From assembly GCF_000014265.1 (NCBI RefSeq), contig NC_008312.1, positions 2,520,001-2,552,000 of the forward strand: a stretch of DNA of 32,000 nucleotides, written 5' to 3'. Shown here in pieces: positions 1-10,037 of this stretch; the stretch's first letter is position 1, and each line of letters opens with the position of its first letter. A program made the translations under genes and the position numbers. The DNA comes from Trichodesmium erythraeum IMS101 (GTDB lineage: Bacteria; Cyanobacteriota; Cyanobacteriia; Cyanobacteriales; Microcoleaceae). The notes under the pieces were generated by a model. It was not told the DNA's origin and ran no database searches. It saw only the letters and a list, made by a program, of their open reading frames with translations.

Positions 1-14
1 TGGTAGGTAGGCAT
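1..14 (-). CDS. Possible 5' end of a fourth minus-strand gene of the left-end operon, running off the window (only 4 codons visible)
   Basis: Reverse complement of 1-34 reads TTAATTTTTGCGAGGAAAGT ATG CCT ACC TAC CA. GAGGA lies about 5 nt before an ATG at 12-14, 20 nt after the stop (35-37) of the 178-aa ORF. Confidence 0.25.
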
Positions 15-34
15 ACTTTCCTCGCAAAAATTAA

Positions 35-571
35 TTAGTTTTTGGTTAAGAAGTGGTCAAAAAACTTTGAGCCTAGAACGCGATAATACGGCTCCAGGGA
101 AGGTTCCATCAAAGTCCGCAAAAGCTGGCTAAATCCTTCTTTCCATTGTGGAGAAAAAGATTTCCCTTGAGCCAGTTTCTCAAGCATTTCCTCATACATA
201 GCTAACAAGCGCCTGCGCTTTTCTTGATATTCCCCCACTGTCATCTGGGCTACTTCTGCATGAGGAAAAGTACCAACCTCCTTTTCCCAATTTGCTTCCG
301 GCCAAGGATTGCTATAGCGGAAGTTGAGGTATTCGACTATCATTTGGTTAGACCAATCCCAGGTTATTTTGGCAAACGGTGGAAATAAAGCCGTCTGAAC
401 TTTGCTCTGGGTATGAGCACCAAAAAAAGGTAAGGTGACATAGACTTTTCCACCTTTGCGTTGGGGAATTGGCCATCCGCTTTGCGCCTCCATTGGTACG
501 AGCTGGCGAAAAAGTGGAGTTTTGCGGATGTCTTCCATCAAATTTTCAATTTTCTGCTTTGTTTGTTCCAT
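35..571 (-). CDS. Hypothetical 178-aa protein, third gene of the Hsp70-TPR/peptidase operon (immunity or accessory candidate)
   Basis: Complete ORF starting 18 nt after the stop of the 420-aa ORF on the same strand. No family recognised by eye. No obvious signal peptide or TM segment; the core is rich in W/F/P and the C-terminal half looks helical. Confidence 0.6.
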   Translation of the reverse strand: MEQTKQKIENLMEDIRKTPLFRQLVPMEAQSGWPIPQRKGGKVYVTLPFFGAHTQSKVQTALFPPFAKITWDWSNQMIVEYLNFRYSNPWPEANWEKEVGTFPHAEVAQMTVGEYQEKRRRLLAMYEEMLEKLAQGKSFSPQWKEGFSQLLRTLMEPSLEPYYRVLGSKFFDHFLTKN

Positions 572-589
572 GATTTTCGTGCTTAGGTT

Positions 590-1852
590 TTAGACTCCTC
601 CCAATATGCCAAATAAATAATAACCAACGCTAATAATATCGGTACCGCCGACGGCTTTTATCGTTCCACCCATATTATGAACCTTATGACAACTATCAAC
701 CCATCCAACCTGAACTCCTTTGGCATCGTACACATTTCCATCGGCACCTAACTTTCCAACGTAATATCCTTGAGTGTTATAAAATTCACGGGCTTTGACA
801 CTTCCCACCGAGCTACCATTTATATAGCAACTACCATCAGGATAGACATTAAAATAGTCGTTACAGCCCAAGATTAAATCATGGGAATCGTGTTGTTGCA
901 GGTCTCCAGAAAAGATTAAATCTTGTTGGTGAGTATTCTGGTTGTCATGTACGTTAGTAGCAACTAGATAGTTACCGCCCGCGGCCCAAGCCTTCTCAAA
1001 TTGCTCCAAGGGAACCATCATCCCGCCTCCATCAGGAGAGCCGGGATCGTTGAGAACAACTTTTGGATGCAGGGGGTCTGACTCTGGGTATACAATCCCA
1101 GTAACTTCGACTGCATGGTCGGCTTGCTGGCCGGGAATACCTGAGTACTCATTTAAGGTTTGATTTAAGTTTGCCTCTTTCTCTGACATCCAGATTTCTT
1201 CAGAGTTTACTCCTACAATTACCTTTTCTCCACGAGCTAATTTGTCACTCAATTCTAGAGTAGTTCCACCAAAATGACGCTCTACGGGGATGCCGTGTTC
1301 TTCTAAGAGATGGCCAACATGGTATGCTGGTGTTCCGCTACCTGGGTGATAACATCCGTCAGCTATAGCTTCTCTACAGAGATCGTTTTCTGAGAAGTGC
1401 TTTCCCGTGAGGTTTTCCAGAACGAATTGTTGGGAGACAATGGCACAATCATCGGCGTAGCGTTGTTGATGCCAGCATTCCATGTCGTGACCAGGATCTC
1501 CAATCACTAAACCATCGGGGTGTTCTGGGTCAAAGTGTTGGTGAGCCGAATATTCTGACTGGTCTTCGGTGTCTCCTAATAAAGGGGAATAATCGCCGCT
1601 ATCTTCTGCGGGTTGAAAGTGCCAGTCGTCTAGCTGACTGCTAGAATCGTCTAAGAAACTGTAATAATCAGTTTCGTAGGCATCGAAAGTATGCAAATTC
1701 GAGTCATGCTCGTCGTTACCCAAATCATGCTCGGTGTCGGGGGTATCGGAGTCGTAATTATGACCGAGGTCATCAAGGTTCGAGTCAAGAACTTCAATGG
1801 CCGCCTCTTCTAAGCTGTCCGTAACTAGCGAATTGTTATCAAATATGTTCAA
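590..1852 (-). CDS. Papain-like (C39-like) cysteine peptidase domain protein with an acidic His/Asp-rich N-terminus and a C-terminal Gly-zipper hydrophobic tail
   Basis: Motif order is typical of the papain fold: WHQQRYADDCAIVSQQ (Gln plus nucleophile Cys), then QQADHAVEVTG (His), then VVLNDPG (Asn/Asp). The first ~120 aa are low-complexity D/E/H/S. The C-terminus has G-x-x-Y/VG repeats and ends in AVGGTDIISVGYYLFGILGGV. It starts 34 nt after the stop of the upstream gene. Confidence 0.7.
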   Translation of the reverse strand: MNIFDNNSLVTDSLEEAAIEVLDSNLDDLGHNYDSDTPDTEHDLGNDEHDSNLHTFDAYETDYYSFLDDSSSQLDDWHFQPAEDSGDYSPLLGDTEDQSEYSAHQHFDPEHPDGLVIGDPGHDMECWHQQRYADDCAIVSQQFVLENLTGKHFSENDLCREAIADGCYHPGSGTPAYHVGHLLEEHGIPVERHFGGTTLELSDKLARGEKVIVGVNSEEIWMSEKEANLNQTLNEYSGIPGQQADHAVEVTGIVYPESDPLHPKVVLNDPGSPDGGGMMVPLEQFEKAWAAGGNYLVATNVHDNQNTHQQDLIFSGDLQQHDSHDLILGCNDYFNVYPDGSCYINGSSVGSVKAREFYNTQGYYVGKLGADGNVYDAKGVQVGWVDSCHKVHNMGGTIKAVGGTDIISVGYYLFGILGGV

Positions 1853-1886
1853 TTAACCATCCTCCTTGCTATGTAAATAGACGATC

Positions 1887-4515
1887 TTATGACAACAGTT
1901 TTTTGAAAAAGTTAGTCACTCCCGATAATGCTTTTGCTGCTGTTAAGGATTGACGAGCATCTTCGTGGCTAGGATCGAGGCGGATTGCTTCTTCATATTC
2001 CGCAATTGCTTCTTGATATTTGCCTTGTTTAGATAATTTTTCTCCCTTTCGATAGTGTGACTCTGATTCTCGCTTGCACAAGAAATTATCTATCTTGCTA
2101 GCTTCTTTGTCTTGGTTTTGAGTTTGGAATAAATCTCTTGCTTTTTTCAAATTGGCGATACCATCAGTCGTTCTATCTTGCTTGAGCAGGGCATATCCTA
2201 AATTAGCGCGAGCTGTTGCAAAGTTAGGATCGAGGCTAATCGCTTCTTTATAAGCGGCAACTGCTTCATCCTCCTTTTTTTGTTGCTCCAAAGCCACGCC
2301 TAACTTGTTGTGAACTATTGTAAAGTTGGGAGCAATGCCGAGGGCTTTTTTATAAGCATGAATAGCCTCATCTAATTTGCCTTGCATAAAAAAAGCCTGT
2401 CCCAAACCATCATAACCTTGTGCAAGTTTGGGCTCAATACAGAGGGCTTCTTGGTAAGCAGCGATCGCCTCTTCCCACTTTTCTTTAAATCCGAAAACTA
2501 CACCTATGCCACAGTGAGCCAATGGGTTATTGGGATTAAGCTTTAAGGCTTTTTTGAATTTTTGTTCTGCTTCCTCAATATCGTTCAAATAAAGATAAGC
2601 AGTTCCTAAAGCATCGTAAGCATAACTATTATTTGGAGCTATTTCTAAAGCACGGTTGAAATCTTTAATCGCTTCTTGCTGATTTCCCAACCAAGAGTAG
2701 CACTTGCCCCGCTCTGCGTACACGACCGTATATTTATAATTTATTTGCAATGCTTTGTCAAACTCTTCAATTGCTTTTTTTAACTCTCCAGTCTGTTCAA
2801 AATGGATTCCACGCCAACCATAAATATCAGCATCGTTAGAATTCAGACTCAGTGCTTTATCAAAATTATCCATGACAGCCTGATGGTTTCCAAGTGCAGA
2901 ATGAGCCATTGCACGATGAACATAAGCGCCAATGTTATTATTGTTTAACCGAAGAGCTTCTTGAAACTCTTCTAATGCTTTACTATGCTCCTCTAGCTGA
3001 GACAGAATTGCTCCACGGGTATTATAATCATCAGAAGTTTTTGGTATAATTTTCAATCCCTCATGCCAACAATCTTGTGCTTGTTTCTTCTTACCTAACT
3101 GTAAGAAACAGCGACCCTGATCATAATAAGCTAGGGGTAAGTTCGGATTAAGTCTTAGTCCTCGGTCATATATGCTAATTGCCTGTTGGTAATTATTTAA
3201 GCGAAAATCAACATCTGCCCGCTGAACATAAGCATTTGCATAGGCAGGTTCAAATTGTATTGCTCTATCAGCATCTTCGATCGCGATGCTATGCTTTCCT
3301 AGCTTAGTGTAAGCTGCTGATCGCTCTACATACGCCTTGGTATAGTTGGGACTCTCTTGTAAAGCTTGGTTGTACTTAGCGATCGCCCCTTGATGATCGC
3401 CTATATCTTCAAGGTCAATTCCAGCTTGCAGTGGAGCATAGCCAGGATTCCATCCTTCATAAATTGCCGCACCTTTGCAAACTGCTAGGTCTGGATCGTC
3501 TAACTGAAGTACGGATAGATTTAGTTCTTGCTCCAATACTTTCTGCACTAATGGAATCTTACAACTACCGCCTACTAAAATTATCTGATCTATCTGATTT
3601 TTTTTCAGATTGGCGTTTTTGATCAACTGCTTGCACAGTTGGACTGTTTCCTTAACATAAGGAGCAATCATTGATTCAAAAGCACTTCTGGTTAATCGAT
3701 ACTCTTGTAACCCCCCCAGGCAAAGGTAATGTAAATGAGTTTTCCTCCTTTGTGCTAAGACTTTCCTTGAGAACCCGACACAAGTCTGCCAAATAGAGAC
3801 GGGTTCGCAAAGCTTCTATGTCTTTACGATTAGGATTGAACAGCGCGAGCTGTTTTGGACTACAACGCTCCTTTACATCCTCAAATATCTGGCGATCGAA
3901 GTCTATTCCACCACAACGCGCCAAACCAACTGGCGGAGCCATAAACTTATAGCCAGAACCTTTTCTCTGAATTAGAGAAGCATCAAAAGTACCCCCACCC
4001 AGGTCATAAACCAACAAAATTTCTCTGTCCTTGACACTGGTACGCTGGGCATAATAGATGGCAGCAGCAACCGGCTCTTCTACAAGATGTACCTGTCGAA
4101 ACCCAGCAGCTTTACCCGCCTCTTCCATTAAGCGCTTCTTCTAATCTGAGTGAGTTGCGGGCACTGTGAGAACAACTCTTGTTAAGGATCCGCTAATCAT
4201 TTTTTCGGCTTCGCGTTTCAGTTTTCTGATAACCTCGACCACTAAATCTTCAGGTCGGAACTGGCAGCCTCCAATTTGATAAGGAGCAGATTTACCTAAG
4301 TCCCGTTTGAACTGCTCTTTATATCGACTAGAGTCTCTCAAACGCTGGTTGTAGGCCTCGTGACCTACTACCACCTGATTCTGCTTAGTGACATAAACAG
4401 ATGAAGGGAAAGAGTCACCAGGCGTGAAGCGACTATCCCTGACAACAAAAGGAATCCAGCCCCGCATCAAAGTCGCGCTGGAATTACAAGTTCCAAAATC
4501 AATTCCTAACCACAT
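1887..4515 (-). pseudogene. Hsp70-like nucleotide-binding domain fused to ~12 TPR repeats, split into three ORFs by an in-frame TAG and a homopolymer frameshift
   Basis: Hsp70 actin-fold motifs occur in order across the three ORFs: GIDFGTCNS (phosphate-1, ORF 4141-4515), LVYDLGGGTFDASLI (phosphate-2, ORF 3676-4128) and IILVGGSCKIPLVQ (adenosine motif, ORF 1887-3671). No DnaK-type substrate-binding domain follows; instead there are repeated A-x-x-x-(Y/F)-x-x-A-(L/I)-x-x-x-P-(N/D) TPR units. A TAG at 4141-4143 is in frame with both flanking ORFs. Deleting one base of the C7 run at 3711-3717 joins ...TLPLPGG to LQEYRLTRSAFESMIAPYVKETV. Confidence 0.85.
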
Positions 4516-4645
4516 AAATTATATTTAACCAAAGAAGAATGAAAAACAAAATTTTACGGCTACAAGCAACCCACATAAGGTTTTGCTTGCCCCGTCGATG
4601 GCCATTTTTACGAATGTGCTGGTGGCTACATTCAGGACATTGCAT
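4499..4645 (-). pseudogene. Remnant of an IS1-like transposase N-terminal zinc-ribbon (InsA-like), overlapping the Hsp70 start codon
   Basis: The minus strand from ATG 4643-4645 (GGAG upstream) reads MQCPECSHQHIRKNGHRRGKQNLMWVACSRKI... This matches the C-P-x-C...(R/K)KNG-x-x-x-GKQ-x-x-x-C-x-x-C pattern of IS1-type InsA proteins, but the second Cys pair is degraded. The ORF runs out of frame into the Hsp70 start (4515) and stops after 48 codons. Confidence 0.4.
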
Positions 4646-5355
4646 GGGTTTATCTCCCACAGTTGTTAGTCACGTTAATTATTATCTGACCATTAGCACT
4701 CCTAAATATGTTAAGTTTTAGTAAGTTTAGTAGTTTCAGGTTTCAGTTTAATAGCAAACATAGAAAATAATTGAAGTAAAAAGTTCCAGTCGAAAAACCA
4801 GGCCAAAAATCAATAAATTTTGTAGTAAGATGTTATCAATTTGTTAATTTTTAAACCTGACACCTGAAGCATTAATTAACAACTAATTTGATTTTTACCT
4901 AACATCAGGTATTATAATGCAACGAACTATTTTTGGGAAATAGATTCATTCCGCCATCTAACAACGCTATGTTTAATAATAAAATTCAGAACCCTGATAT
5001 CAAAAATGATACTACTAACTATAAGAATAAATTTTAGTCTATTTTTTCTCCGATAAACATAAATCATCAGTATAACCAACAAAAATCTATATCTTTTGTC
5101 AAAAAAAACATAGGCTCATTTGACTAATCATTAATACTAATTCTCAAAAGCTAGGCTATACTAGACATCTCCAAAAATTATCACTTCCCTTACTGTAACT
5201 ATCTTCTCCAGAGCGATCGCTAGCTCCTCCAGATAGTTATTTTTTATGGTATTTATAGTATTACAGATAGTTATTGTTAATTATTTAGCATTTTTATGTA
5301 ATTATTTCTTGCTTTTTACTAGACCTAAAGTTAGAATTTATGTTAACATTAGTGC

Positions 5356-6141
5356 TTAATCTCTTAATCTCACTAAACCACATATTGTTAAAATTACTTT
5401 TTCATAATTACTCTCTTTTAATCTGAATCTTTCTCGTGCAACTTTAAATATTTTTATCAGTCTTATTACATGTTCTACAAATATTCTTTTTTGAGCTTTT
5501 TTTTGATTCTCTTTTTTTACTTTGTATGACATTTTATGGTTTCTTTTTTTTTCTTTGGCGTGTCAATTCTTGACCCACCTTGATAACCTTTATCTCCTTG
5601 AAATCTTTGTTCTTTATCAAACTTTTTTTGTGGTTTTCTGAATAAAATTATATCACTCTCTGGACCTCTTTCTCCTACTATTACATCAACTATTTCTTTT
5701 CCATTATCTGTGATTATTATTTGATTTTTTAACGTATGAATTTTTTGCTTTCCTGAGTAATATTTTTTCTGCTTTTCATCATTTTTTGGCCTGAATATAT
5801 CCTGTTATGTACTATCAACTATCAATTCTATTTCTTTCAAAGCTTCTTTTATCCATAAATATTCGTTTTCTTTTCCCCAGAATTCCTCTAGTAAACTAGA
5901 TGGTAATAATTCCCTCAAAATATTGATCCAAAGCCTGAAAAATATTATTTGCTGTTGATTCACTAACTCCAAATATTGCTCCTAGCAGTTGAAATGTTGG
6001 TAAATGATGCAAATAATATAATGTCAAAATTATCTCTTCCGCCTTGCCTAAAGACTTTTTTCTGACTCCTCCTGCCTTAATTAATCTTTTTTCTTCTTTC
6101 TTCGATCGTCTGTCTTTTTTTGTCTTCAACTTTTTGAGCAT
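5356..6141 (-). pseudogene. IS5-family / DDE_Tnp_4 (Harbinger-like) transposase pseudogene with HTH_Tnp_4 N-terminus
   Basis: ORF 5896-6141 gives ...LTLYYLHHLPTFQLLGAIFGVSESTANNIF (HTH). Homology continues in other frames: FRLWINILRELLPSSLLEEFWGKENEYLWIKEALKEIELIVDST*QDIFRPKNDEKQKKYYSGKQKIHTLKNQIIITDNGKEIVDV..., then GDKGYQGGSRIDTPKKKK / RNHKMSYKVKKENQKKAQKRIFVEHVIRLIKIFKVARERFRLKESNYEKVILTICGLVRLRD*. Lesions are a frameshift in the A5 run 5938-5942, an in-frame TAA at 5805-5807 and a frameshift in the T9 run 5544-5552. Candidate imperfect terminal inverted repeats have the core GTATTACAGATA at 5258-5269 and its reverse complement at 6166-6177. Confidence 0.75.
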
Positions 6142-6550
6142 TTTCTATTAATTTTATTAGTTGTTTATCTGTAATACCAATAATCCTTTTTGTATATGGA
6201 TGGATGATTATAAATATATTCTAATACATTATTCATTTGGGGACAGCATATATATAATTGGGCACTACAATTTTACCTTAATTTCTATTTTGGAGAGGTC
6301 TACTTAGAACCTGGCAAAAATAACTTTCCTTCATAAACGAAGTTACCAATAATATCGAGTATTTGCTCCAACAAATAAATACTATATTATTGAAATAATT
6401 TTATTGTTAACTAACCTCTGTGATTTCTCCAGTCCTAGTTTACTATCTTCCAAGGGCAGCGTAAATGATCAAAAAATGGTATTATATATAATATCATCTC
6501 CAAATAATTAGTGCTCAATAACTTTCTCCTGTAAGTGCCTTTTCTTTCCT

Positions 6551-6592
6551 TCTCGCTTCTGCTTCCAGCCTAAGTGCCTTCTGCCTTCTGCC
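6551..6592. repeat. Degenerate tandem heptamer tract (TTCTGCC-type, about 6 units)
   Basis: tctcgct tctgctt ccagcct aagtgcc ttctgcc ttctgcc, read in 7-nt phase. Intergenic, upstream of ribD. Confidence 0.6.
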
Positions 6593-6785
6593 ATGTAGAT
6601 AAGTATTCAACTGGACATAATATAAGCACCCATAAACCCAGTTTTTTCATAGATGTCTATTGTTCAAACATAAGATTTATCTTAGCAACCAGGTTTATTT
6701 GCGTAAGTTATATTCTCCTAACCAAATGGGTTCTGTATAATTTCTGAAGATGTCTAATATTTAACTTGAAACTAAAAATCTGAAG

Positions 6786-7910
6786 ATGTTGAAATTTGAT
6801 GATAGTGAAAATCAAAATCAGCTCGATCCCTTAATTATGGCTCATTGTCTAGAACTAGCCCGACGTGCTTTGGGTAATACTGCCCCTAATCCTTTGGTGG
6901 GTTGTGTTATAATTAAAAATGGCCAAATTATAGGTGAGGGATTTCATCCTGGTGCTGGTTATCCTCATGCCGAAGTTTTTGCTCTCACAGAGGCGGGGGA
7001 AAAAGCAAGAGGAGCTACTGCCTACGTTAATTTAGAACCATGTAATCATTATGGCAGGACACCACCTTGTACAGACGCTTTAATTGCAGCAGGTGTAGCT
7101 AGGGTAGTAATTGGAATGATTGATCCTAATCCTTTGGTTGCAGGTGCTGGTGTGGCCAAGTTGCAGGATGCTGGTATAGAAGTAGTAGTGGGAGTATTAG
7201 AGGCGGAATGTCGCGAACTGAATGAAGCCTTTATTCACCGAATGCTTTACCATTGTCCTTTCGGAATTTTGAAATATGCCATGACTCTTGATGGTAAAAT
7301 TGCTACCACTACAGGTCATAGTGCATGGGTGACATCTCAGGAGGCAAGGAGTGAAGTGCATAAGTTACGGGCTATTAGCGATGCCGTGATTATTGGAGGT
7401 AATACAGTTCGACGAGATAACCCCTTTTTGACGAGTCGCAGCACTCAAGCTAATAATCCTTTGCGGGTAGTTATGAGTCGTAGTTTAGATTTGCCCACAG
7501 AGGCTAATTTATGGGATGTCAGTGAAGCTCAAACTTTAGTATTTACAGAAATAGATTCTAATCAAGAATTTAAGGAGTATTTAAGGCAAAAAGGGGTGGA
7601 AGTGCTGGAAACTTCGACTTTAACTCCCGCAGTAGTAATGTCTAATCTCTATGATCGCGGATTTCTTTCTGTACTTTGGGAGTGTGGGGGAACTTTAGCA
7701 GCCAGAGCGATGGCTGATGGCGCAGTACAAAAAATTTGGGCTTTTATTGCTCCGAAAATTATTGGAGGGGAAATAGCTCCAACACCAGTAGGGAATTTAG
7801 GGTTAACTAAAATGACGGAGGCTTTTGAGTTAGAAAATATTAGTATGCGTACTGTTGGTTGTGATTATTTATTAGAAGGTTATTTGCATCAGAAAAAGGA
7901 AAAATTTTGA
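6786..7910 (+). CDS. ribD: Bifunctional riboflavin biosynthesis protein RibD (pyrimidine deaminase / uracil reductase)
   Basis: Cytidine/dCMP-deaminase zinc motifs HAEVFAL and PCNHYGRTPPC are followed by a RibD_C-type reductase domain (KYAMTLDGKIATTTGHSAWVT, GGNTVRRDNP). The true start could be the internal Met before AHCLELARRAL. Confidence 0.9.
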   Translation: MLKFDDSENQNQLDPLIMAHCLELARRALGNTAPNPLVGCVIIKNGQIIGEGFHPGAGYPHAEVFALTEAGEKARGATAYVNLEPCNHYGRTPPCTDALIAAGVARVVIGMIDPNPLVAGAGVAKLQDAGIEVVVGVLEAECRELNEAFIHRMLYHCPFGILKYAMTLDGKIATTTGHSAWVTSQEARSEVHKLRAISDAVIIGGNTVRRDNPFLTSRSTQANNPLRVVMSRSLDLPTEANLWDVSEAQTLVFTEIDSNQEFKEYLRQKGVEVLETSTLTPAVVMSNLYDRGFLSVLWECGGTLAARAMADGAVQKIWAFIAPKIIGGEIAPTPVGNLGLTKMTEAFELENISMRTVGCDYLLEGYLHQKKEKF

Positions 7911-8045
7911 GTCTTTTTATAAGACATTTACAGCATATTTCAAGTATATGAGTTACAAGTATTAATATTCAAACCTCTCAGGGCTTTTTGGAAAATGGGG
8001 TTTCAGGGGAGATTTCTCAACTAAGAATCAATTTGCTATAATACT

Positions 8046-8173
8046 AAGGGGTTTGGAATACTTGTTACAAGTGCTAGGGATATTCCATGTAATGGACCTA
8101 GGTTAAACTGAAGTTAGAGTAAATCTTGAAACCATATGGGGGATCGCGATAGAGATAACTGCTCTTTTATATT
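8046..8173. repeat. Short copy (~128 bp) of a MITE-like dispersed repeat; second copy at 22318-22573
   Basis: The 5' arm ggaatacttgttacaagtgctagggatattccatgtaatggacctaggt and the 3' arm gaagttagagtaaatcttgaaaccatatgggggatcgcgatagagataactgctcttttata both match the corresponding arms at 22318-22573. Confidence 0.6.
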
Positions 8174-8252
8174 TTGAGTGGCTATTTTTGAACGTATGTT
8201 ATCAAGATGTAACTTTTTAGTAAACTATTTTTTCACCGGTGGTATTGTAAAA

Positions 8253-8942
8253 ATGATTGATACAATTTTAGTTGTTCAAGGGCAAGAATTAAAGTCTGTG
8301 AAGCGTGGTCTTAGCTGTAGCTTATCTGTACCTCCAAAATTGTTACCTCTACCAATAGGCTTGACATCTGTTAGTCGCCATTTGCATCAGTGGCAAAAAA
8401 AAGAGGATTTTTGCTCTCAGCAACCATCAAATATATTAGTTATGGGATTGTGTGGAAGTCTCTCTAGTCAATATATGCCTGGAGATATAGTTATTTATGA
8501 TGAGTGTGTTTTACTTGATAAGTCTCAGTTGCTTAGGCAAAAGTGCAATAGCGTTTTAACTAATAAATTGCAAACTAATTTACCAAAAAAAGCATCTCTA
8601 GTAAGAGGTTTAACTAGCGATCACTTAATCTATAAAGCCGAGGAAAAACAATTACTGGGAAAAAACACTGGCGCAGCAGTAGTAGATATGGAAGGTTTTG
8701 CTATTCTGAATTTCTGCGCTAAGTTATCTATTTCGGTGGCGATGGTGAGGGTAATTAGCGATGACTGTCATCATGATATTCCTGATCTCTCTTCTACTAT
8801 AACATCATCAGGAAATTTGCGACCCTTACCATTAGCGATCGCTATGTTTCGGCAACCAATTGCTGCTTGGCAACTTATTCGAGGTGCCAGCAAAGGATTA
8901 CAAGTTTTGCAACAGGTGACAAGCTGTCTTTTTACGGATTAA
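8253..8942 (+). CDS. PNP_UDP_1-family phosphorylase / nucleosidase-like protein (MTA/SAH-nucleosidase or HpnG-like)
   Basis: ILVMGLCGSL...PGDIVIYDE and AAVVDMEGFAIL...VRVISDD are typical of the family. The ORF opens at GTG 8178, but the first 25 codons overlap the repeat end and are not family-like, so ATG 8253 (MIDTILVVQG) is preferred. Confidence 0.7.
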   Translation: MIDTILVVQGQELKSVKRGLSCSLSVPPKLLPLPIGLTSVSRHLHQWQKKEDFCSQQPSNILVMGLCGSLSSQYMPGDIVIYDECVLLDKSQLLRQKCNSVLTNKLQTNLPKKASLVRGLTSDHLIYKAEEKQLLGKNTGAAVVDMEGFAILNFCAKLSISVAMVRVISDDCHHDIPDLSSTITSSGNLRPLPLAIAMFRQPIAAWQLIRGASKGLQVLQQVTSCLFTD

Positions 8943-8959
8943 AAAAAAGCGGTCATTTT

Positions 8960-9019
8960 AGTCATCAGTTATCAGTTATCAGTTATAACTTATTAGCCAT
9001 TAGTTATAAGTTATCAGTA
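8960..9019. repeat. STRR-like tandem heptamer tract (TCAGTTA and variants)
   Basis: agtcatc agttatc agttatc agttata acttatt agccatt agttata agttatc ag, directly after the phosphorylase stop. Confidence 0.8.
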
Positions 9020-9283
9020 CCTCTAGCAGAAGCATTCAGATGAAATACTAAAGTTTATTTTCTCTAGGAACCTTGAAAGAGCATACTTAAAACCTTGTTT
9101 TTTGGTAAGCACTGAGATTAAATTATTTTTTTTAAGGTGCGAGAAGCAGATTTCCAATCATCCTAAACCATCCAGAGTTTTTATTCTCCGGGAATTTTAA
9201 CTCTAAGTTGCTCACAGTTTATAGCTAGTTATAGTTAGCATATCTATTGTCTAATGGCGTGAGGGTTTTTCCACCTCAGCAGG

Positions 9284-9442
9284 TCAATACAGATAAATGG
9301 CTTGGTCACCAGGTCCGGTGTAGTAAGAATTGTCCCCTAATTTTTCTGCTGCCGGTATGCCCAAAATCTTATCTATGCATGAGCTTGAGTCACCGACTTC
9401 TCGTATTTTGAGAAACCCCGAAATTTGGTTGGCTATGAGCAT
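9284..9442 (-). CDS. Possible 52-aa small ORF immediately downstream of the Crp-family gene
   Basis: ATG 9440-9442 to TGA 9284-9286 reads MLIANQISGFLKIREVGDSSSCIDKILGIPAAEKLGDNSYYTGPGDQAIYLY. It falls below the ORF-track cutoff, has no clear SD, and is GC-richer than the surrounding spacer. Confidence 0.2.
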   Translation of the reverse strand: MLIANQISGFLKIREVGDSSSCIDKILGIPAAEKLGDNSYYTGPGDQAIYLY

Positions 9443-9479
9443 AATTTGTGTCAATGCTTTGCGAATTAACCAGCAAGCC

Positions 9480-10037
9480 CTAGTTAAAAAGAATTAAATA
9501 GTTACTCTGTGACCACCCAATTTTATTTTCCTTCTCCAACTCATTTAGTATTCGCGTAACAGTAACACGACTAGTACAAATAATTTCAGCTATTTCTTGA
9601 TGAGTTAAGCGAATATTAAGTATTTTCCCTTCTGGCAGTTGATTCCCAAATCGATCTGTTAACCATTTTAATAATCTCAGCAGTCGTAATTTAATTTTTC
9701 GAGAATGAATAATTCTTAATAGTTCTTGAGTTTTTTGAATATGAGAAAGCATTACCTCTTGAGCATAAAAATAGCTCTTTGGTAAAATACTTGCTTGCAC
9801 AATAGTTAAGCATTGAACTTGATAAGGATAAAAAGGAAATAGAGGTTGACCAACAATATCTCCTTGACCCCAAAATCCTAGAGTAATAACATTTTTTTCT
9901 TCATTTTTACTTAAAGTGCGAACTACTCCAGTATCTATTCGCCATAATAATATATCTGTTAATGGCATGAGTTGATGACGTTTAAATTGATGATGCCTCA
10001 ACTTAGGGGATGCAGTCATTACTGAATTTAAGGTCAC
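9480..10037 (-). CDS. Crp/Fnr-family transcriptional regulator
   Basis: The C-terminal HTH is LTHQEIAEIICTSRVTVTRILNELEKENKI and the N-terminal domain is a cNMP-binding-like beta-roll (GFWGQGDIVG). GTG start with AGGAG 8 nt upstream. Confidence 0.8.
   Translation of the reverse strand: MTLNSVMTASPKLRHHQFKRHQLMPLTDILLWRIDTGVVRTLSKNEEKNVITLGFWGQGDIVGQPLFPFYPYQVQCLTIVQASILPKSYFYAQEVMLSHIQKTQELLRIIHSRKIKLRLLRLLKWLTDRFGNQLPEGKILNIRLTHQEIAEIICTSRVTVTRILNELEKENKIGWSQSNYLILFN

Follow-up and report, generated by a model that had tools for sequence, protein, structure and literature searches.

A predicted six-gene operon of Trichodesmium erythraeum that joins a toxin/immunity-type peptidase pair to bacterial dynamins

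What is the function of the closely spaced minus-strand genes at the beginning of a 32,000-nt stretch of the Trichodesmium erythraeum IMS101 genome (contig NC_008312.1, positions 2,520,001 to 2,552,000; hereafter the window)? A preliminary description of positions 1-4515 had proposed three, possibly four, genes, in which an Hsp70-type ATPase/TPR scaffold regulates a membrane-anchored protease that is accompanied by a small partner protein. The ORF listing is in agreement with this cluster and with intergenic gaps of 34, 18 and 20 nt, and the fourth gene opens at position 14. The features, all on the minus strand, are the following:

1..14, dynamin-like GTPase 1, fourth gene of the operon, first 14 nt only (ATG at 12-14), remainder past the window edge
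15-34, gap between genes 3 and 4, 20 nt
35..571, S178 (178 aa, Tery_1655), putative immunity-type partner of the peptidase and dynamin-associated domain
572-589, gap between genes 2 and 3, 18 nt
590..1852, papain-fold (C39_2-like) cysteine peptidase, predicted, 420 aa, Tery_1656, TTG start
623..853, beta-hairpin repeat region (aa 334-410), followed by a short hydrophobic end, specific for the Trichodesmium clade
953..1540, papain-like catalytic core (aa 105-300), pLDDT >90
1463-1465, 1445-1447, 1115-1117 and 1046-1048, catalytic codons for Gln130, Cys136, His246 and Asp269, respectively
1541..1852, acidic His/Asp-rich disordered N-terminus (aa 1-104), pLDDT <50
1853-1886, gap between genes 1 and 2, 34 nt
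1887..4515, Hsp70 NBD-TPR fusion, pseudogene, 875 aa once repaired
1887-3671 (594 aa), 3676-4128 (150 aa) and 4141-4515 (124 aa), ORFs of the broken gene 1
1920..3401, array of about 12 TPR repeats (TPR_1, 12 stretches, E 8e-85)
3456..4515, Hsp70 nucleotide-binding domain (NBD) without substrate-binding domain (Pfam HSP70; motifs GIDFGTCNS and DLGGGTFD)
3711..3717, G7 homopolymer, +1 frameshift (G6 in L007)
4141..4143, in-frame TAG nonsense codon (Tyr in relatives)
5356..6141, degenerate IS upstream of the operon, with HTH_Tnp_4 and DDE_Tnp_4 fragments (Pfam)

The start of the fourth gene, ATGCCTACCTACCA, is translated to MPTY.. and is the same as the start of a 686-aa Dynamin_N/DUF6861 protein (MPTYQARYQ..) encoded on L007, a marine contig with 99.6% identity to the window. 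In relatives the operon runs on past window position 1 into two dynamin-like GTPases, which are LeoA/LeoBC-like, and a GrpE-like gene. The first three genes are therefore not a functional unit of their own, and positions 1-4515 are the 5' half of a putative six-gene accessory operon with the order Hsp70 NBD plus variable repeat domain, C39_2-like cysteine peptidase, S178, dynamin-like GTPase 1, dynamin-like GTPase 2 and GrpE-like exchange factor. GTPase 1 is the one with the membrane paddle, which is hydrophobic and Gly/Ala-rich, and it matches the PADLOC models LeoA (5e-36) and LeoBC (7e-19). A published description of the six-gene operon was not found, and it is apparently undescribed.

The lead gene had been viewed as an inactivated fusion of an Hsp70 ATPase domain with about 12 TPR repeats in place of the substrate-binding domain, and both parts of this view hold. 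All three fragments match Pfam HSP70 over a joint span of about positions 2-372 of the 599 profile positions, indicating that only the nucleotide-binding domain is present, and the 12 TPR_1 stretches lie within the 594-aa fragment. Deletion of one G from the G7 tract restores the frame, and mending of the frameshift and the nonsense codon yields a single 875-aa ORF. At the nonsense site the window reads TCA GAT TAG versus TAA GAT TAT in L007; the Hsp70 gene has acquired independent nonsense mutations in two close, viable Trichodesmium lineages. The frameshift and the split into 124, 150 and 594 aa recur in four independent assemblies, which excludes a sequencing error. Intact orthologues of 801-936 aa are present in L001 and L003, and the five remaining operon genes are intact in the IMS101 assemblies. 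T. erythraeum IMS101 thus probably has a module that is disabled or locked in the off state, because the Hsp70-TPR protein is knocked out.

For the second gene, a papain-like fold had been predicted, and the motifs DDCAIVSQQ, ADHAVEV and LNDPG are indeed found in Tery_1656. Residues Q130, C136, H246 and D269 are invariant in an alignment of 32 homologues, and the best Foldseek match of the structural model is the C39-like peptidase 3ERV (E 8e-6), followed by matches to the phytochelatin-synthase-like Alr0975, staphopain, the C39 domains of PCAT/ComA and the StbD-CT toxin (8SSK). We are confident that Tery_1656 adopts, as modelled, a papain/C39_2 fold with invariant Gln/Cys/His/Asp. It has 81 homologues, many of them with PF13529; in the Pfam search Tery_1656 itself stays below the C39_2 threshold. 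The acidic His/Asp-rich N-terminus reported before corresponds to the disordered residues 1-104, which have a net charge of -30, 20% Asp and neither Lys nor Arg. Length and sequence of this region differ among homologues, and a PAAR domain is found instead in relatives from type VI secretion loci. The region of aa 334-410 has a weak match to Bflower_2 (E 5e-4, under the Pfam cutoff), its strands have a pLDDT of about 80, and in the homologue alignment it is confined to P0002-P0004. The proposed membrane tail-anchor finds no support. The hydrophobic C-terminal tail exists, but it comprises only about 15 residues, no 19-residue window reaches a Kyte-Doolittle value of 1.6, the closest orthologues have an Arg in its middle (GYYLFGRLGGV), and it is missing from most of the family. 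Therefore, the peptidase is not demonstrably membrane-anchored.

The 178-aa protein had been described as lacking a recognizable family, which is in accordance with zero matches of S178 in Pfam, NCBIfam, PADLOC and the PDB sequences; no PADLOC defence model was matched by the peptidase either. The AF2 model of S178 (pLDDT 89.6, pTM 0.85) has no fold match in the PDB. An answer to its likely role comes from type VI secretion loci. Four of them (L028, L029, L030/31 and L032) have the gene order VgrG, PAAR-C39-like, and a gene of 176-182 aa. The peptidase profile aligns with the PAAR toxins with the Q/C/H/D residues in register (hhalign 99.3%, E 1e-20), and the S178 profile with the genes downstream of the PAAR-C39 toxins (98.7%, E 3e-16). 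These profile comparisons show that the predicted peptidase domain and its neighbour S178 have homologues that are likewise encoded side by side, namely the PAAR-fused toxins and the products of the genes that follow them. Relatives of the toxin domain form 59 clusters, nearly all of them PAAR-fused. A type VI secretion toxin gene is usually, albeit not always, followed by an immunity gene, and the conserved order points to a toxin-immunity arrangement. The earlier proposal that the small protein is a cognate immunity protein or inhibitor thus gains strong independent support. A precedent is provided by the C39-type interbacterial toxins Cpe1 and StbD-CT, whose neutralisation depends on immunity proteins encoded next to them (PMC12136450; bioRxiv 10.64898/2026.05.07.723447).

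The conservation of S178 is higher than is usual among immunity proteins, which suggests constraints beyond toxin binding. The mean column identity is 55%, the identity between cyanobacteria and Streptomyces is 51%, and dN/dS is 0.12-0.21 for S178 and 0.12-0.39 across S178 and the peptidase. In five full-length representatives of 659-777 aa (P0245, P0259, P0263, P0290 and P0302) S178 is located N-terminal to Dynamin_N; the 300-aa fragment P0279 has the same order, and P0351 is a tandem double S178-like protein.

The synteny of the first three genes extends across five phyla. In L001-L004 and L007/L008 genes for the Hsp70-repeat protein, the C39-like peptidase, S178, two Dynamin_N proteins and GrpE are found in identical order with short gaps. 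A scan of GTDB with an S178 pattern revealed a rare and patchy distribution, with 20 loci in 185,579 species genomes, and hosts include cyanobacteria, Blastocatellia, tubeworm symbionts, Streptomyces, Kitasatospora, Actinomadura, Pseudonocardiales and Sphaerobacteraceae. A related locus is present in Dictyobacter (Chloroflexota), and L041 lacks S178. According to phmmer searches, both dynamins adjoin S178 in every evaluable locus outside the type VI group. Of these loci only L026 lacks the C39-like gene, and most have an Hsp70 NBD; no GrpE was detected in the loci of actinobacteria or symbionts. L040 combines the C39-like gene and S178 with three dynamin genes and has no Hsp70 nearby. Some loci have no Hsp70 nearby and S178-dynamin fusions occur; the peptidase/S178 pair is accompanied most constantly by dynamins, and not by Hsp70-TPR. 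The proposed control of the protease by an ATPase/TPR scaffold would thus be only one part of a larger apparatus.

The neighbourhood of the module elsewhere makes the suggested likeness to NTPase-plus-effector conflict systems an apt one. In Anabaena sp. 90 the module is borne on the plasmid pANA01, and its neighbours are genes for DO-GTPase1/2 (the DO-GTPases of Kaur et al. 2020), an NBD-only Hsp70 and a CHAT protease. A STAND NTPase that carries an HTH_VMAP-M9 domain adjoins the module in L001. L006 and L017 each contain three Hsp70-NBD paralogues, which in L006 end without an added domain, with a beta-helix or with WD40 repeats.

Taken together, we favour, with moderate confidence, the view that the operon is a conflict module of the toxin/immunity type that is coupled to NTPases and has bacterial dynamins at its centre. 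The peptidase would be a toxin-type effector acting in the cytoplasm, and S178 the cognate partner that binds and neutralises it and through which it would be docked at a membrane-bound dynamin pair. The dynamins would respond to an invader or to damage of the membrane, and their GTP-driven remodelling would release or position the active peptidase. Alongside, ATP-driven remodelling might come from the Hsp70-repeat protein, for which the GrpE of the operon would be the exchange factor and whose variable domain (TPR, beta-helix or WD40) might serve as a sensor or an adaptor; for Hsp70 and GrpE these roles are purely what we infer. The result would be growth arrest or cell death, similar to abortive-infection or kin-conflict systems.

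Alternatively, the dynamin pair might export the peptidase by vesicles or membrane fusion in an interbacterial or kin-directed toxin delivery, with Hsp70/GrpE as motor or unfoldase and S178 as a classical immunity protein guarding producer and kin. In polymorphic toxins the N-terminal region determines how the toxin is delivered (Zhang et al. 2012, PMC3482391), and here the variable acidic disordered region replaces PAAR. The same toxin-immunity-type pair is used by type VI secretion systems for the delivery of toxins from cell to cell, strict retention of the immunity gene would suit self-protection, and filamentous or multicellular bacteria, whose cells are in contact, are enriched among the hosts. 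However, none of the components has a signal peptide or known secretion domain, and dynamins act on necks surrounded by cytoplasm and are ill suited to outward budding. S178-dynamin fusions would be odd for a freely diffusing immunity protein, and the pANA01 neighbours are of the intracellular conflict-system type; we regard delivery as unlikely. An adaptor, chaperone or co-factor function of S178, which would load or activate the peptidase on PAAR/VgrG spikes and dynamins instead of inhibiting it, is very doubtful. In its favour, many effectors of type VI secretion depend on adaptors of their own, DUF2169-type adaptor genes are present in the same type VI loci, and a scaffold role would fit the high conservation of S178 and its dynamin fusions. 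However, such adaptors are typically encoded upstream of the effector and immunity genes immediately downstream, as in all four loci, and the tandem protein P0351 resembles poly-immunity arrangements.

Distinctly unlikely is also a housekeeping or developmental machine for the remodelling of thylakoids or septa or for membrane repair. The peptidase would then process dynamins or another client, S178 would be a regulatory subunit or assembly factor, Hsp70/GrpE would disassemble dynamin polymers as plastid HSP70B-CDJ2-CGE1 does with VIPP1, and the type VI versions would be secondary co-options. Bacterial dynamin pairs do function in membrane fusion and repair (PMC6104087), and BDLP1 of Nostoc has a partner with a DnaJ-like domain; a 'chaperone clade' of cyanobacterial dynamins has DnaK-domain neighbours (Jilly et al., 2018, PMC5827413), and both S178 and the core of the peptidase are strongly conserved and under purifying selection. 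Against this stand the very rare and patchy occurrence in at least five phyla, the plasmid location in Anabaena sp. 90, the loss of the lead gene in two viable lineages, the variable and duplicated C-terminal domains of Hsp70, the fact that at least four type VI loci have the homologous pair where toxin and immunity genes are expected, and the 59 clusters of PAAR-fused relatives. A fortuitous adjacency of genes or non-functional remnants without a common role has a negligible probability. Pseudogenes are numerous in Trichodesmium, and this locus has a broken lead gene and adjoining IS debris, but the gene order is kept across phyla, dN/dS is well below 1 and the five other genes are intact; the synteny data effectively refute this explanation.

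The rest of the window contains housekeeping genes and no other defence genes. The IS debris noticed beside the locus was recovered as the transposase fragments listed above, which lie within a 1.1-kb stretch that is missing from L007.

In every close relative of the locus, genes for an Hsp70-repeat protein, a C39-like peptidase, the 178-aa protein S178, two Dynamin_N proteins (686-689 aa and 524-538 aa) and a GrpE-like protein (221 aa) follow one another in this order. The preliminary description had asked whether the first three genes co-occur in the neighborhoods of their homologs, and this is the case, with a conserved order across relatives. However, it had centered on the trio and had missed the dynamin and GrpE half of the operon. 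Only the first 14 nt of dynamin 1 lie inside the window: the last of the intergenic distances, which had been given as 34, 18 and 20 nt and agree with the ORF coordinates, extends to the ATG (position 14) with which a fourth gene starts, and dynamin 1 of the relatives begins with MPTYQ, as does the gene starting there. The 178-aa and 420-aa proteins are identical to Tery_1655 and Tery_1656, respectively, and the neighboring 374-aa protein is RibD. The window shows the operon truncated and partly decayed, with the following features.

Genes and lesions of the operon in the window
35-571, minus strand: S178, 178 aa (ORF call)
590-1852, minus strand: peptidase, 420 aa (ORF call)
1887-3671, minus strand: Hsp70-TPR piece, 594 aa (ORF call)
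3676-4128, minus strand: Hsp70-TPR piece, 150 aa (ORF call)
4141-4515, minus strand: Hsp70-TPR piece, 124 aa (ORF call)
4141-4143, minus strand: in-frame TAG nonsense codon (by comparison with the Tara Oceans contig L007, which has a Tyr codon there)
3711-3717, minus strand: +1 frameshift in a run of seven G (six G in L007)

The three upstream ORFs of 594, 150 and 124 aa are pieces of a single Hsp70-TPR gene. Jointly they cover about positions 2-372 of the 599 positions of the Pfam HSP70 profile, i.e., the nucleotide-binding domain (NBD) only, and the 594-aa piece contains 12 TPR_1 repeats after the end of this match. A canonical DnaK/Hsp70 chaperone with NBD, substrate-binding domain and lid was therefore rejected; the scores with the NCBIfam DnaK and HscA models are far below the cutoffs. 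Repair of both lesions restores an uninterrupted ORF of 875 aa. The lesions are real mutations, because the 124 + 150 + 594 split is identical in four independent assemblies. L007, which is 99.6% identical, is intact at the sites affected in IMS101, but has a TAA of its own, two codons upstream of the IMS101 TAG site (Ser to TAA in L007, 7704-7713, versus Tyr to TAG in IMS101, window 4141-4149, minus strand), and IMS101 has the G7 frameshift in addition to its TAG. Trichodesmium therefore harbors a decaying accessory module, in which two close lineages have distinct nonsense mutations in the lead gene, and this suggests repeated loss of, or selection against, the gene. The decay is recent, as dN/dS versus more distant orthologs is 0.15-0.35. 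The five genes downstream of the Hsp70-TPR gene remain intact.

Upstream, a 53-aa ORF with a Zn-ribbon-like motif (CPECSHQHIRKNGHRRGKQN) at 4499-4660 (minus strand) shares 17 nt with the beginning of the Hsp70 gene; Pfam gave no match to it, and it may be another IS remnant. A stretch of 1.1 kb at about 5179-6300 holds fragments of HTH_Tnp_4 and DDE_Tnp_4 transposases. IMS101 has this stretch and the near-identical L007 lacks it; it therefore represents a recent insertion that has since decayed. An Rfam search of positions 1-8000 gave no match, and promoter-like and terminator-like sites are no more common than expected from shuffled sequences.

Homologs of the peptidase were found in 81 cases, many of which match the Pfam family PF13529 (Peptidase_C39_2, clan CA). 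The window protein itself has no match to PF13529 at E ≤ 0.1, nor to any other Pfam peptidase family, while 13 of 32 aligned homologs match PF13529 at E ≤ 0.01 (best 3e-8) and the ortholog on the Anabaena plasmid pANA01 reaches 26.1 bits, the cutoff being 24. The alignment of the 32 homologs revealed a conserved core (aa 105-300) with variable flanks, in which Q130, C136, H246 and D269 are invariant, in the order Gln (oxyanion hole), Cys, His, Asp. In the AlphaFold2 model this core has a pLDDT above 90. The best Foldseek match is the C39-like peptidase 3ERV (E 8e-6), followed by the phytochelatin-synthase-like Alr0975, staphopains and cathepsins, and the C39 domains of PCAT, ComA and LahT. The core is thus predicted to have a papain-like alpha+beta fold and to be a cysteine peptidase, and in the light of the model, its structural matches and the invariant residues the papain fold assigned earlier to the 420-aa protein seems well chosen. 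The same is not true for the proposed C-terminal membrane tail. It comprises about 15 hydrophobic residues without any hydrophobic window of 19 residues, and in the closest orthologs it has an Arg in its middle; a tail-anchor or Gly-zipper helix was also rejected because the tail is restricted to four close relatives and has a low pLDDT. The stretch preceding it is a beta-hairpin repeat with a Bflower_2 match below threshold. The C-terminus (..LGGV) was considered as a ubiquitin-like Gly-Gly precursor, which was discarded because the domain consists of beta-hairpin repeats and the homolog P0004 lacks GG. At the other end, residues 1-104 are disordered and have a net charge of -30 without any Lys or Arg, and no PAAR or Rhs domain was found there with Pfam. 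The annotated length of Tery_1656 differs, with 377 aa in RefSeq (WP_155994358.1) and 420 aa in GenBank; an N-terminus MN(I/V)(F/V) common to the orthologs P0002 and P0003 supports the TTG start of the 420-aa version.

That S178 resembles no recognized family had been stated from the start, and searches against Pfam, NCBIfam, PADLOC and PDB sequences yielded no match. Its 49 close homologs (175-196 aa) have a mean column identity of 55%, and the family extends to Streptomyces with 51% identity. The AlphaFold2 model (pLDDT 89.6, pTM 0.85) has a beta-sheet at the N-terminus and a helical bundle after it; no PDB fold matches this model (best E 0.07, TM 0.23). Assignment to a known immunity family or any other family was therefore rejected, as was a J-domain, because the "FPH" that is invariant in S178 does not correspond to the HPD motif of a J-domain fold. 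A profile search in 1.84 billion representatives retrieved 404 clusters at E ≤ 1e-3, 59 of which had E ≤ 1e-30. S178 represents a new, uncharacterized immunity-type protein family of about 400 clusters at 50% identity, which has a confidently predicted fold and is absent from Pfam.

The most distant S178 match revealed a link to type VI secretion. In Candidatus Thiodiazotropha (locus L028) it is encoded directly after a VgrG gene and a gene for a 319-aa PAAR protein, with sheath genes upstream. The PAAR protein has a C-terminal domain homologous to the core of the window peptidase, and the gene that follows encodes an S178 homolog. With this toxin domain as query, 59 clusters were retrieved, nearly all of them fused to PAAR. 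Three further loci on four contigs, one from Chondromyces apiculatus, contain VgrG, then a PAAR-C39-like gene, then a gene for 181-182 aa, and in all three both partners match the profiles. Both homologies are supported by profile-profile comparison (hhalign): 99.3% and E 1e-20 for the peptidase domains, with Gln, Cys, His and Asp aligned (Q153, C158, H261 and D283 of the PAAR toxins), and 98.7% and E 3e-16 over the full length for the small proteins. In four of four type VI secretion loci the S178 homolog lies directly downstream of the toxin, the same adjacency as in the window, where the gap is 18 nt. By gene order, this is the canonical arrangement of effector followed by immunity gene. 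The earlier idea of an effector with a cognate partner in a conflict system is therefore strengthened by the homology to the PAAR-toxin pair and by conflict-type neighborhoods, while the membrane anchor and the extent of the operon had to be revised.

Papain-like toxins of this kind have recent precedents. Cpe1/Cpi1 of E. coli (type VI secretion/CDI) and StbD-CT/StbI of Citrobacter rodentium (CDI) are pairs of an interbacterial toxin of the C39 type and an adjacent immunity protein, and both toxins cut GyrB and ParE at a Gly-Gly motif (PMC12136450; bioRxiv 10.64898/2026.05.07.723447). They share with the window family a papain/C39-clan domain with a Cys/His/Asp triad, a small cognate gene next to it, and fusion to PAAR, Rhs or CdiA carriers. 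Both act in the cytoplasm, and the window peptidase would probably do the same. However, the window domain belongs to the larger C39_2/YvpB-like type, with 3ERV as best match, in contrast to the compact ComA/LahT type on the Cpe1/StbD side, and the window peptidase has an acidic disordered N-terminus in place of a carrier domain and resides in a dynamin/Hsp70 operon. Searches with the profiles of the peptidase, the PAAR toxins and S178 against all PDB chains retrieved neither Cpe1 or StbD nor Cpi1 or StbI (E ≤ 1 to 10). Membership in the Cpe1/StbD family by sequence was thus rejected, and the similarity of the peptidase model to the StbD-CT structure 8SSK (Foldseek E 4.6e-4) is at the level of the fold only. 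S178 has no match among the PDB chains and is therefore related to Cpi1 and StbI neither by sequence nor by fold. Papain-like toxin domains that are related to C39 and use T2SS, T6SS or PVC for delivery have also been described, under the name Tox-PLC39 (Zhang et al., 2012, PMC3482391). The respective table row lists no dedicated immunity family, Imm-SuFu is tied elsewhere in that table to "Tox-PL-C39-like", and, in contrast to the window pair, no association with dynamin or Hsp70 is described. The present analysis defines a C39_2-type toxin family of at least 59 PAAR-fused clusters.

When one genome per GTDB species was scanned with an S178 pattern, 20 loci were obtained. The hosts are cyanobacteria (Phormidium, Microcystis, Dolichospermum, Acaryochloris), Blastocatellia, gammaproteobacterial symbionts of tubeworms, Streptomyces, Kitasatospora, Actinomadura and Pseudonocardiales, and Sphaerobacteraceae; a related locus is present in Dictyobacter (Chloroflexota). 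T. erythraeum itself is missing from these loci, even though EPxLEPYYR, the pattern searched for, occurs in the S178 of the window; its species representative may be another assembly or may not contain the locus. According to the phmmer classification of ORFs, S178 adjoins both dynamins in all evaluable loci outside the type VI secretion group, all of these except L026 contain a C39-like gene, and most contain an Hsp70 NBD with a variable C-terminus, i.e., TPR, beta-helix, WD40, TPR plus ferredoxin, or nothing added. GrpE was found in loci other than those of actinobacteria and symbionts. Two loci deviate: in L040 three dynamins accompany the peptidase and S178, and an Hsp70 gene is missing from the vicinity, and L041 has GrpE, the peptidase and one dynamin and lacks S178. 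In three loci of tubeworm endosymbionts (L015, L016, L027; about 7870-9893) two tandem C39-like paralogs precede a single S178 gene. The Hsp70-TPR ortholog of an uncultured relative (L001, 3297-6107) ends in a 2Fe-2S ferredoxin (Fer2), which is unusual for an Hsp70 NBD-repeat protein. Dictyobacter formicarum (L006, 8106-19634) and Acaryochloris (L017, 2-6009) each have three Hsp70-NBD paralogs. Those of D. formicarum have nearly identical N-termini and C-termini with nothing added, a beta-helix or WD40, a variety that resembles, by analogy, the diversification of sensors in immune receptors.

The two adjacent dynamin genes were identified in L007 (Dynamin_N, 2e-25 and 1e-18; Pfam). Dynamin 1, which has a Gly/Ala-rich hydrophobic paddle, matches the PADLOC Eleos models LeoA (5e-36) and LeoBC (7e-19), and dynamin 2 matches LeoA (2e-10). 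In five full-length representative proteins of 659-777 aa, an S178 domain is located N-terminal to the Dynamin_N GTPase; the fusions carry a hydrophobic C-terminal segment where this part is intact, and a 300-aa fragment has the same domain order. The anti-phage system Eleos (LeoA/LeoBC) is not known to comprise genes other than those of the dynamins. Like LeoABC of enterotoxigenic E. coli, it shares with the operon paired dynamin-like GTPases encoded side by side, but the operon has four further conserved genes, namely those for the peptidase, S178, the Hsp70-repeat protein and GrpE, and neither the peptidase nor S178 is represented by a PADLOC model.

A second comparison concerns the DO-GTPase systems with HSP70, GrpE and TPR modules, which have been described as NTP-dependent conflict systems of multicellular bacteria (Kaur et al., 2020, PMC7159879); the main text of this eLife article by Kaur, Burroughs, Iyer and Aravind does not mention dynamin. 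The DO-GTPase/GAP1 systems and the operon have in common paired GTPases, an Hsp70 that sometimes lacks the peptide-binding domain, GrpE, TPR, a predicted NTP-dependent control of effectors and a bias to multicellular bacteria (PMC7159879), and the operon fits in having, together with GrpE, an associated Hsp70, which in the DO-GTPase systems is often NBD-only. Its GTPases are not DO-GTPases, as they match Dynamin_N and MMR_HSR1, but not PF19975 or PF19993 (Pfam). This absence is informative, because both models were searched and match neighboring genes on pANA01. That 80-kb plasmid of Anabaena sp. 90 was the only match of S178 in plasmid records. Its RefSeq annotation lists a "C39 family peptidase", a hypothetical protein, which is the S178 homolog, and two "dynamin family" genes; directly upstream are genes for an NBD-only Hsp70, two DO-GTPases (PF19975, PF19993) and a CHAT-domain protein.

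Gene order on pANA01
L042, 1-13262: CHAT, HTH, NBD-only Hsp70, 412-aa unknown, DO-GTPase, DO-GTPase
L042, 1-13262, continued: 479-aa unknown, C39 peptidase, S178, dynamin, dynamin

The DO-GTPase genes are thus flanked by the NBD-only Hsp70 on one side and by the C39/S178/dynamin genes on the other, and two GTPase-centered modules appear to have merged on the plasmid. No GAP1 protein was recognized, S178 and the 412-aa and 479-aa proteins being without Pfam match at E ≤ 0.01 to 0.1. Because Hsp70 NBD-repeat proteins, together with a GrpE of their own, are repeatedly associated with two families of paired GTPases, the DO-GTPases and the dynamins, these data point to Hsp70 NBDs as general switches in prokaryotic conflict systems.

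The operon family appears to be undescribed: a literature search retrieved neither the combination of peptidase, S178, dynamin, Hsp70 and GrpE nor the locus tags Tery_1652-1657. In this operon, strict synteny and fused domains physically link a dynamin pair to a protease and its partner, a pair that serves type VI secretion systems as toxin and immunity protein. In the mechanism that we propose, the peptidase would be a toxin-type effector acting in the cytoplasm, S178 would bind and neutralize it and tether it to the dynamin pair, and nucleotide-driven remodeling by the dynamins and the Hsp70-repeat/GrpE pair would control its release. The operon might then represent a new class of dynamin-centered conflict or immune systems, in which the toxin is held by S178 on a membrane-bound dynamin pair and armed by GTP and Hsp70/GrpE, with the repeat domains as sensors similar to those of NLR/STAND proteins; this full scheme is tentative, and we would rate it as rather doubtful. 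If true, it would provide the first defined effector arm for bacterial dynamins of the Eleos type and the first Hsp70 NBD that serves as the switch of an immune receptor.

Other explanations are also possible. The peptidase could be delivered into other cells, with S178 as a classical immunity protein, as the arrangement in the type VI secretion loci would suggest; the large ORFs encoded in the 32-kb window have housekeeping functions, and none is a type VI secretion gene. S178 could also be an adaptor instead of an inhibitor, and its fusion to dynamins is compatible with such a role. A housekeeping function in membrane remodeling, with the peptidase as a processing enzyme, is a further possibility. 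It has been described that DnaK-domain genes adjoin some cyanobacterial dynamin-like genes, the "chaperone clade", and thylakoid membrane dynamics have been proposed as their function (Jilly et al., 2018, PMC5827413, as far as the excerpt available goes). In contrast to the operon, a peptidase, a 178-aa protein, GrpE or a link to toxin and immunity is not mentioned in this excerpt. The partner of Nostoc BDLP1 bears a DnaJ-like domain (Liu, Noel and Low, 2018). Against a housekeeping function argue the rare and patchy occurrence of the operon across phyla, its location on a plasmid in Anabaena sp. 90, the duplicated and variable C-termini of the Hsp70 proteins, and the fact that two viable lineages have different nonsense mutations.

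The reach of the S178 fold might extend to phages. The uncharacterized 158-aa protein A0A8S5LSF7 of Siphoviridae sp. ctMAv2 (BFVD) shares the fold of the S178 model (Foldseek E 4e-6, TM 0.66-0.73, identity 15%) and, judged from this structural similarity, could be a phage-borne immunity or anti-defense homolog; a tblastn search with S178 in GenBank phage records found nothing. In addition, the 345-aa protein P0351 consists of a tandem-duplicated S178-like domain of the type VI secretion type, which recalls poly-immunity proteins.
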